Position numbers: made by a program
NCBI GenBank assembly: GCA_050575255.1
Contig: JBNZDD010013731.1
Coordinates: 11,965,956-12,029,955, forward strand
DNA length: 64,000 bases
Direction: 5' to 3'
Origin: Harriotta raleighana
Lineage: Eukaryota
Part shown: positions 12,001 through 15,000 of the stretch, in pieces
Position numbering within the stretch: the stretch's first letter is position 1
Layout: every line of letters starts with the position of its first letter

Positions 12001-15000
12001 AAACAAGAGGTAAGCAACCAAAAGTATCCAGATACAATAGGGAGAGCAGTGCAAGAATGTGATAGAAATAAAAGTTCAACTTTGTCAAATATTTCACTAA
12101 TTTCATTTCAACAAAATGTTATAGTGCAAAATGAAGAACTGGTAAATAAAAGTGAGGCAGTAAAACCAAACCCGTTACCCGAGAAAGATAAAGAGAACAG
12201 CAACCAGCCAGGATTTTTTTCAGCCTTATTCAATTCAGCAACAAGGAAACCAGAGGAGACGAGTAAGAATGACAGTCCTTTAAGTTTTTTTAAATTCATG
12301 AATAAAAGCGATGAAGCCAGCAAAACAGGAAATGAGAACCAAAGTGAAGGCAATCATTTATCTTCATTTTTCACAAAATCTGTCAATACACCAGAGAACA
12401 AGAATGAAGAAACATCATCCTTCAATTTGTTTAAACATTTTACTTCCAAAACAAAGGACAGTAGTGAACAAACTGAATTGAAGGAGAACCCCAATAAGCA
12501 GACACAATCAATGTGGTCTTCAAAGCAGCCAGAGAGCAGCAATGATAAACTATATGAGAATAAAGCATCTCATATTGTGCAGAATTCAAGTCCAAGTGAT
12601 GTCCCTGGAGTATCGAGAACTTGGCAGGCTCAAGCTTTGACAAAAACCTGTAAAAATATTCCTCAGGAATTTCAAGAAGGGCCCGAGCAAATTCCAATCG
12701 GAACACAAGCATACAAGGCTCCTTGGAATTCTTCATGTAGTGATATGGCTGAATATAATTCATTACCAATAAATAATGCAGCATTGATATATTTATTTCC
12801 ACATTCATTCCAAAGTCACCCAGAATTTATTAGGCCTGAATCGGGATTAAAAACTGAAGCATGCAGTGAAGTTTATTCTCAAGAAGATTCCAATCTGATC
12901 TGGACAGATATTTCTACTGCAGACCGTGATACTTTCCAGGATTCATATGAAGAGTTGAGCAACAGGACAGAAATGGACAATATTATAAATTTGTCGAACA
13001 AGGAGGAGGTCATTAATCCAGACGATGGCAGCTACTTATTTTCCAATAGGACTGAAAACATTATGGAACCTGAGTGTTTGGATTTTAGTGTAGCATCGGG
13101 TGATACCTACAGGTCATTTTCATATGCAAATTCTGCTGAAGAAAGCCTGAGCAAAACCTTAGAGAGATATTGGGATTCGTTAGAACTTAATGGAACTGTT
13201 GACTCATTTCTTGAAATGCCAATGGATCTAAGTTACTCTTCTAGCAATGCAGTTTCTTGGCTTATTCCAAATGAACAAGAATTAGTGACAGAAAAGGAAA
13301 AACAATTTTCTATCAGCAGTTATCAGGAGTATCAAGACTGGCTTGCTTTACTTGAAAACGGTTTATGGTGTCCTTCAGAAGATGGGGAATATGGCTACTA
13401 CATGTACAGTGATGGTGAATATATATATTCCTTGCTCACTGATGCCAATGGCCAATACGTGTATGTTTGGAGACCAGAGACAGATGAAGAACAGGAAGAT
13501 TGGGAGTATTATCAGCAATTGAATGGTGAATGTGATGTAGGACTGGGAGAGGACATGGTTTCTGTATGTGGTTTTAAGGTGCCCATTTCAAATGATTTTG
13601 ATTTGTTCTGGTACAATGAGGAAGAGCAGATTGAATCTGAAATGGACAATGCACCTCTTGATCTTTCTCTGGTTTGGGGAAGGAATGACCGAGCTGTATG
13701 GAAGAATTTAAATACTTTTTCACAACTGTTTGAAGATTCGATAGAATTGAATACGGATGAACCACTTGATTTTTCATCAAAGTACAAAATGTGCAAGCTG
13801 AAAAAACTTAAGATGGATTTTTCTTCTGAAGATCAAATTGAACATTTTCACGGAGAACTTCAGAATATTGCCTTTGATCTGCGAATCGTCCCAGGTAGTC
13901 AGTCGGCTCAGAAGCAGAGTAAAACTAGCACAACACTAGCAAATGAAATCTTAGATTGTGCATCTACAACACCGCAGTCGAAACTTTCATCAGTGGCAAC
14001 CTCATCAGGACTGTTTAGTCTGTTTCGTTCTTCTGTTAAATTGTCAGATCCTTCAACACAGAATACCTCTGAAACCAATCAACCTGAAGAGCACCAACAG
14101 CCTATCAAAAAGATAACATCTTTCTTTTCTTCATTGGGTGATCTTGTTGGAAATCAAAATGCTGAAAGTTCTGTGGTTTCTAGTTCGGCTTTACCAGGCT
14201 TGGCACCAGCCACCCCATCAAAGAGCACATTGGACATGACCAATGACACCATTTCTTTATCAAGAAATAATATGGATCAGACTAAGCCTAATGTTAGGGA
14301 TAGACAGCCTTCAGTTATCTCACAAGATGACAAACCAAGTAATATGTTTGCGTCTGGTTTAAAAAGTTTAAAATCAATATCTAGTAGCTGGAAGAGCACA
14401 ATGAGTGCTTCAGATGATGAACCATCTATTGTTGATCAGAGACACAAAATACAAGATCAGGATTTGGCTAGGTCACCTGCTTTGCACTCTCCTGAAGACT
14501 CAGCTAGAAGTGTAATGCAGCCATCACCTGAGGGGATGTCAAATATAAATCAAAATAAATCTAATGCTAGTGTCAAACCACCTCTAATGTCTTCTCAGCC
14601 TACTGCATTTCAAATACCCACTTCGACGACACACGACTCGTTCTTTAAAAATCCTCTCAAACTTTTTAACCCATCCGAAAATCAGACTCAAGCAAAAAGC
14701 AATGAGGAAACTCGAAGTTCTAGTTTCTTTGACATTTTTAAAAGTGCCAGTGCCAAAGAAGAGCAGAATTCGTCTGGCTTGAATTTTCCGTCGAGAGTAA
14801 CTGAGGCCCATGAAAAGGAGCAGAACAATCTTGGGAAATCTGTTCCTAATGTAGAAAAGCAGCCTTCTGGCATTTCATCCCTCTTTGGCTCAATTGGAGG
14901 ATTCTTCAAAATTGATCCAATTCAACATCCAGAACATGTAATGAATTCAAGTAAGAACGAAAATAAAAGTAAACTACCAATTGCAGCACAAATTGTGCAT

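Follow-up and report, generated by a model that had tools for sequence, protein, structure and literature searches.

A conserved array of PxDLS-type motifs in a giant exon of UNC13B (Munc13-2), a candidate docking site for CtBP-family proteins

The question raised by this locus is whether a very long coding exon of a presynaptic priming gene carries a docking site for proteins of the CtBP family. The sequence considered here, referred to below as the window, is a stretch of 64,000 nucleotides from Harriotta raleighana (assembly GCA_050575255.1, contig JBNZDD010013731.1), and the gene that it contains is the chondrichthyan UNC13B (Munc13-2), on the plus strand like all the features described below. 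A sequence-only reading had pointed to a cluster of P-x-D-L/F-S motifs within the giant exon of this gene and had proposed that they could tether Munc13-2 to synaptic ribbons or to CtBP1. Judged from the comparison of orthologues, the evidence is solid that the cluster represents real, selectively maintained short linear motifs located in the best-conserved block of the giant exon. As to what they bind, a CtBP-family protein is quite possible, although a little short of probable.

Translation of the frame placed PMDLS, PLDLS and PLDFS at exactly the nucleotide positions that had been claimed for them. Two sites conform to the canonical P-[hydrophobic]-D-L-[S/T], i.e., motif 1 (PMDLS, 13219..13233, residues 1374-1378 of the frame) and motif 2 (PLDLS, 13654..13668, residues 1519-1523), the latter being an exact PxDLS. 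Motif 3 (PLDFS, 13762..13776, residues 1555-1559) is a variant with Phe at position 4 and does not conform, and neither do four neighboring sites that have no Pro: motif A (IINLS, 12982..12996, residues 1295-1299), motif 0 (CLDFS, 13075..13089, residues 1326-1330), motif 3b (KMDFS, 13810..13824, residues 1571-1575) and motif 4 (AFDLR, 13870..13884, residues 1591-1595). The consecutive spacings of these seven sites are 31, 48, 145 (across a conserved core), 36, 16 and 20 residues. The acidic context that had been described for them holds, with a D+E fraction of 0.209 and a K+R fraction of 0.061 over residues 1290-1600, vs. 0.155 and 0.103 over the whole frame. A further site, PIDVS (17032..17046, residues 2645-2649), had been counted with the others and is located outside the conserved cluster; a PVDVS is present only in Scyliorhinus and the region could be aligned in just 2 of the 33 non-shark orthologues, for which reason it was dropped.

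What carries the main conclusion is that P-x-D-L/F-S is conserved above its flanking sequence from sharks to tetrapods, as had been anticipated and as the alignment clearly confirmed. This alignment has 35 rows, namely the window and 34 orthologues from named species (hits lacking a source were left out), and all 34 match the block by BLASTP at E<=1.2e-36. Motif 1 reads P[MILV]DLS in 29/35, from chondrichthyans to primates, the exceptions being axolotl (LMDLS), Scleropages (an insertion) and four percomorph teleosts (APSLS in three of them and PPSLS in one). Motif 2 reads PLDL[S/A] in every sequence (PLDLS in 31/35 and PLDLA in four frogs), and motif 3 reads PLDFS in 30/35, with PLNFS in sturgeon and xVDFT in the percomorphs. 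When the 307 five-residue windows were ranked by conservation, PLDLS came first (0.98), PLDFS fifth and PMDLS 26th. The mean majority fraction was 0.83 for the motif columns and 0.75 for the core, and 0.47 for the 176 other non-core columns. In addition, a search of the 35 whole proteins (2523-5102 residues) with the pattern P[LVIM][DN][LMF][STA] retrieved only the three homologous sites, plus a single extra one in the gecko Paroedura. The distance between them is nearly constant as well, with 137-146 residues from motif 1 to motif 2 and 32-36 from motif 2 to motif 3 in the orthologues carrying both.

The flanking sites had been taken as degenerate versions of the motif, and here the picture is mixed. 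INLS and AFDLR are conserved, whereas CLDFS is largely not. Inspection of the alignment gave [VAI][VLMI]N[LF][CST]xK for motif A, with N[LF] in all 35 sequences and NL in 32, and motif 4 appears as x[LFI]DL[RST], with DL in 35/35 (window rank 64 of 307). Motif 0 has an xxD[LF]S counterpart in only 14/35, which are two chondrichthyans and 12 sauropsids; mammals, frogs and ray-finned fishes lack it. Motif 3b is weakly conserved as [KR][VM]D[FL]x (rank 95 of 307).

The frame that contains the cluster is open from 9100 to 18225, a total of 3041 codons from stop to stop, and is collinear with proteins from 34 named vertebrate species. Within it, the candidate bounds of the giant alternative coding exon are 9111..18207, with a candidate acceptor AG at 9109-9110 preceded by a pyrimidine tract and a candidate donor GT at 18208-18209, directly 3' of a conserved K-R-P-V end; between these bounds the exon is collinear with a Scyliorhinus protein (P0004) and with giant UNC13B isoforms. 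A Pfam scan of the frame returned no family. The assignment of the gene to UNC13B in the sequence-only reading was right. By tblastn, the gar, eagle and macaque giant isoforms revealed at least 20 collinear UNC13B exons between 5605 and 59273, with identities of up to 100%, those for C1, C2B and MUN being located downstream of the giant exon and those for the ub-type N-terminal part upstream, and orthologues of the giant isoform are annotated in other vertebrates. All the homology searches used translations of single exons, and the window does not reach the ends of the gene.

A homology search with frame residues 1250-1650 retrieved 149 proteins at E<=0.001 which, where named, are UNC13B, or else are unnamed vertebrate loci. 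The best match was a hypothetical protein of Scyliorhinus torazame (53% identity), followed by lizards, turtles, birds, sturgeon, gars, teleosts, frogs, axolotl, marsupials, hamster and non-human primates. Many of these orthologues are annotated as giant UNC13B isoforms of 4145-5102 residues, with C2, C1 and MUN domains. The block of residues ~1370-1600 is the best-conserved part of the exon, with a high-scoring segment pair in 32 of the 33 non-shark orthologues. A profile of the block, run against 1.84 billion representatives, found 69 proteins at E<=0.001, 59 of them below 1e-30; given that it finds only these 69, the block seems to be confined to the giant UNC13B exon. The ten weakest matches (P0170-P0179, E 7e-28 to 2.9e-05) extend over no more than a part of the profile, and among them P0173-P0176 are long proteins (1169-2843 residues). 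P0173 matches part of the core and P0174-P0176 the part after motif 2 (helix, motif 3 and motif 4) at E 9e-13 to 5e-11, and these four may correspond to a paralogue that keeps part of the module.

For the structural context of the motifs we modeled residues 1362-1622 (a 261-residue query) with AlphaFold2 from a 19-row alignment. The model is poor, with a mean predicted local distance difference test score (pLDDT) of 46.2. Its moderately confident part is a helix plus a four-stranded sheet at query positions ~46-110 (pLDDT 60-72), located between motifs 1 and 2. This corresponds to a conserved aromatic-rich core (13318..13584, residues ~1407-1495) predicted as one helix (47-58 of the query), four strands (61-64, 70-76, 80-87 and 92-98) and then a CGFKV strand (130-134). 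Between motifs 2 and 3, a conserved amphipathic helix was predicted at query positions 169-188 (13687..13746, residues ~1530-1549, the NLNTFSQLFEDS region), where the five-residue windows score 0.83-0.89. All the motifs fall in stretches with pLDDT below 50 (~28 at motif 1; motif 2 belongs to the stretch 136-168), and the segments that hold them, on both sides of the small folded core, are probably flexible according to this model. A Foldseek search of the model against the PDB gave 440 matches at E<=10 and none at E<=0.001, which is not surprising at a mean pLDDT of 46, and a search of the ESM Atlas with the 261-residue block gave no usable match.

The ligand that these sites resemble is well known. 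In published passages, P-x-D-L-S is the ligand of a surface cleft on CtBP1 and CtBP2, the B domain of RIBEYE is nearly identical to CtBP2, of which it lacks the first 20 residues, and the Munc13 found at the ribbon synapses of photoreceptors and bipolar cells is ubMunc13-2, located there in the arciform density. What the sequence-only reading had stated about RIBEYE/CtBP2 and about ubMunc13-2 at photoreceptor ribbons agrees with these passages. The RIBEYE B domain retains a working PXDLS cleft, and mutation of this cleft disrupts both ribbons and release. PXDLS peptides are described, again in published passages, as labels of ribbons in living bipolar cells, and the published ribbon-binding peptide contains PVDLSVA, which motif 2 resembles in its sauropsid and gar orthologues (PLDLSVA). 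Motif 2 is also identical letter for letter to the PLDLS of adenovirus E1A and has the same consensus as the nuclear ligands of CtBP1 and CtBP2. However, E1A and the cellular repressors are nuclear and recruit a co-repressor, while Munc13-2 is a cytoplasmic presynaptic priming factor, so that the reader that matters would be either RIBEYE or CtBP1/BARS of the cytoplasm.

A motif array of this type has a precedent in Piccolino, the ribbon-synapse isoform of Piccolo, for which published passages describe a C-terminal PXDLS/T array, with one canonical motif and several near-motifs, that binds the RIBEYE B domain. According to a 2026 preprint, the more motifs a Piccolino fragment has, the better it cross-links B-domain filaments, the spacers being of ~25 and ~45 residues. 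Piccolino is a large, mostly disordered active-zone protein, as the giant Munc13-2 probably also is, and the two have in common one or two canonical motifs (PVDLT in Piccolo) accompanied by near-motifs that are off by one residue, the conservation of the motifs among vertebrates and spacers of tens of residues; in Piccolino a CtBP-type cleft is bound multivalently. There are also differences. The UNC13B spacings given above, with 145 residues at the widest, compare with ~25 and ~45 in Piccolino, and of the UNC13B sites only two are canonical, the other three to five being variants. In UNC13B, in contrast to Piccolino, a small folded core interrupts the array and a conserved helix forms part of it.

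We thus propose, tentatively, that the array is a docking site for CtBP-family proteins, with CtBP1/BARS, CtBP2 and the RIBEYE B domain as candidate readers. Motifs 1 and 2 (P[MILV]DLS and PLDL[S/A]) would be canonical ligands for the PXDLS-binding cleft of the family, flanked by the conserved variants ..N[LF][CST], PLDFS and x[LFI]DL[RST], and the array would dock one or several CtBP-family subunits in the way that the Piccolino array docks and cross-links RIBEYE B domains. Through such docking, a Munc13-2 isoform would be connected with CtBP1 at active zones or with RIBEYE at ribbons. The sequence data show the motifs, their conservation, where they are located in the gene and the low confidence of the model around them, whereas we infer which protein reads them, that the binding is multivalent and in which cells it takes place. 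In a more specific version, distinctly improbable as it stands, the RIBEYE B domain would have two endogenous PXDLS ligands, Piccolino and a giant ubMunc13-2 isoform; the ribbon tether is a plausible and unproven mechanism. In this version, the motif array, carried on a flexible arm of ~3000 residues, would attach the C2A end, which binds RIM, either to the ribbon or to CtBP1 at active zones, full-length forms would bring the MUN priming machine there as well, and the Ser/Gly-Phe/Leu motifs of the giant exon (described below) would hold vesicles along the arm. Taken as a whole, the earlier interpretation is partly supported; it stands in its gene identification, in the conservation and in its background, and has to give way over the membership of PIDVS.

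Several observations weigh against docking to a CtBP-family protein. At motif 3, Phe replaces the Leu or Met of the consensus, and there is no Pro in motifs A and 4, which leaves only two canonical sites. Both motif 1 and motif 3 have been lost in the four sequences of percomorph teleosts, although teleosts have ribbons. Conservation extends without a break over ~45 residues that comprise motif 2, the helix and motif 3, which suggests a larger binding or folding module rather than isolated motifs. The low pLDDT at the motifs is weak evidence of disorder because the AlphaFold2 model is poor overall. Many of the annotated models contain only C2, with ~2800-3550 residues, and end a few residues past the exon; the giant exon may therefore often form part of a protein that has C2A but not the MUN priming domain. 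Finally, release from photoreceptors is largely Munc13-independent and the ribbon synapses of hair cells function without Munc13s.

Among the alternatives, one is that the motifs match the pattern by chance, within a long frame of low complexity that is non-functional or even non-coding. We compared the 3041-residue frame with 20000 shuffles of itself, using patterns that were picked after the data had been seen. P.DLS was observed twice against a shuffle mean of 0.10 (P=0.005) and P[LVIM]DLS twice against 0.019 (P=0.0002). For P[LVIM]D[LF]S there were three observations against a mean of 0.029, and three were reached in 0/20000 shuffles, as was the case for three such motifs inside 190 residues. 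A looser ELM-like pattern was unenriched on the window alone (2 observed vs. 0.62 expected, P=0.13), and this result and the selection of the patterns after the fact are what can be said for chance. Since the patterns were post hoc, conservation is the independent test. Over the 3041 open codons the frame is collinear with proteins of the 34 named species, the three sites are, with the one exception of Paroedura, the sole matches in the orthologue proteins, and PLDLS outranks every other five-residue window of the block in conservation. Because the motifs are conserved across the orthologues chance can be set aside, and we consider it extremely improbable.

More serious is the alternative that residues ~1370-1600 make up a single folded or self-associating module, in which the P-L-D-L/F-S segments would be structural elements (strand ends, caps, or segments packing on the aromatic core or on the conserved helix) rather than ligands of an external partner. 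In favor of such a module, conservation is unbroken across motif 2, the helix and motif 3, the core is about as conserved as the motifs (0.75 vs. 0.83), the spacings between motifs 1 and 2 and between motifs 2 and 3 are almost fixed as in a domain, and AlphaFold2 places a helix (169-188) and a strand (204-210 of the query) after motif 2. However, pLDDT is below 50 at every motif and merely 60-72 in the core, there is no Pfam family and no PDB fold match at E<=0.001, the invariant residues are exactly those of the known ligand motif, and the frogs have a two-residue deletion right after PLDL, easier to accommodate in a linker than in a fold. On balance we find a single folded module rather unlikely, if well worth keeping in mind. 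A different possibility is that the motifs do bind a partner by beta-strand addition and that this partner is not a CtBP, being either SUMO, through sites similar to SUMO-interacting motifs (SIMs), or a protein specific for P-L-D-[LF]-S. The presence of five to seven x-hydrophobic-[DN]-[LF]-[STR] sites within ~300 acidic residues would suit such a reader, and the invariant Phe of PLDFS is atypical of CtBP ligands. The SIM core consists of three or four aliphatic residues, [VIL][VIL]x[VIL], beside acidic or Ser residues, and is similar to IINL of motif A and to the VIDL or ILDL that some orthologues have at motif 4. Motifs 1-3 do not fit this core, which among the sites compared is matched only by motif A and those orthologues of motif 4; their invariant Pro and two hydrophobic positions fit PxDLS instead. 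We know of no further reader of PLDLS, and consider another strand-binding partner unlikely.

The organization of the locus bears on which transcripts could contain the array. Upstream of the giant exon there are a UNC13B exon for the ub-type N-terminal part (5605..5847, matching eagle residues 176-261 and gar residues 194-250 by tblastn) and another at 8637..8723 (eagle residues 261-289). Two small exons follow the giant one (18979-19065 and 21555-21650), and the shared exons, with up to 100% identity to the giant isoforms, extend from 38106 to 59273. The C1 domain is encoded by the shared exon at 42516..42743 (95-97% identity, gar residues 3612-3687); Pfam places C1 at residues 3633-3682 of the gar protein (P0045), which also has C2 and MUN. 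An open frame of 886 codons (29324..31984), in the long intron 3' of the giant exon, was identified as the bMunc13-2-type alternative first coding exon since 88% of it aligns at 73% identity with the N-terminal part of UNC13B from Callorhinchus milii, a b-type protein of 1933 residues with C1, C2 and MUN. A frog isoform and a lamprey protein matched the same frame more weakly, and the giant isoforms did not match it by tblastn. The window thus contains, in the same gene, ub-type upstream exons, a b-type first exon and the shared C1/C2B/MUN exons. As the giant exon is located 5' of the b-type first exon, gene order indicates that it could be included only in transcripts from the upstream (ubMunc13-2) promoter. 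The characterized ubMunc13-2 and bMunc13-2 have lengths of ~1,600 and ~2,000 residues, too short to hold an exon of 3041 codons.

Some other features of the giant exon and its surroundings deserve mention. Further blocks of it could be aligned in many orthologues, at residues 290-430, 700-800, 2140-2230, 2520-2610 and 2800-2900 (approximately 9970-10390, 11200-11500, 15520-15790, 16660-16930 and 17500-17800 of the window), and residues 301-400 aligned in up to 31 of the 33 non-shark sequences. At 18199-18225, where the frame can be read through the candidate donor, the K-R-P-V end is followed by four more residues, LAYA, and then by the stop at 18223-18225, and the C2-only UNC13B models of lizards and birds likewise stop four residues past KRPV/KRLV (AQTA, AGAA, TNEA). 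There are hints here of a conserved truncated isoform formed by C2A and the giant exon, without C1/C2B/MUN. The pattern [GSTN][LFM]F[GSTN] (GLFS, GFFS, SLFG, SFFS and similar) has 18 copies in the giant exon, e.g., at residues 783, 863, 1038, 1637, 1927, 2173 and 2846, when shuffles would give 1.63 and a maximum of 7 in 5000; orthologues have 5-25. As an idea only, these Ser/Gly plus Phe/Leu stretches could be amphipathic, similar to lipid-packing sensors, and possibly hold small vesicles. A single N is found at window position 3065.

In the literature searched, which lacked most subscription-journal papers, no paper on the giant UNC13B isoform was found, only database models, and no link between PXDLS and Munc13-2/UNC13B; the search for a long or large UNC13B exon produced one co-mention that on inspection proved unrelated. 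Where Munc13-2 and CtBP are mentioned together in the papers examined, CtBP2 appears only as a ribbon protein or marker, and two preprints dealing with the Piccolino/RIBEYE motifs make no mention of Munc13. The PXDLS array in UNC13B would therefore be new, and what was already known, from Piccolino, is that a presynaptic scaffold can carry such an array. The architecture of the gene itself recalls 480-kDa ankyrin-G, described in a published passage (PMC5135030), a scaffold protein with a single very long, mostly disordered and vertebrate-conserved alternative exon. The sequences are unrelated and the analogy is one of gene architecture only.

If the ribbon tether proves true, it would show by which molecular route the "priming on the ribbon" described in a review could take place. 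The array is a second candidate ligand, beside that of Piccolino, is present from chondrichthyans to primates and belongs to the only Munc13 gene that retinal ribbon synapses use. Docking to CtBP1/BARS, on the other hand, would connect a Munc13 with a protein of ordinary synapses that takes part in membrane fission and senses activity. Either way, how priming factors couple to the ribbon and what role the giant UNC13B isoform plays become testable questions.

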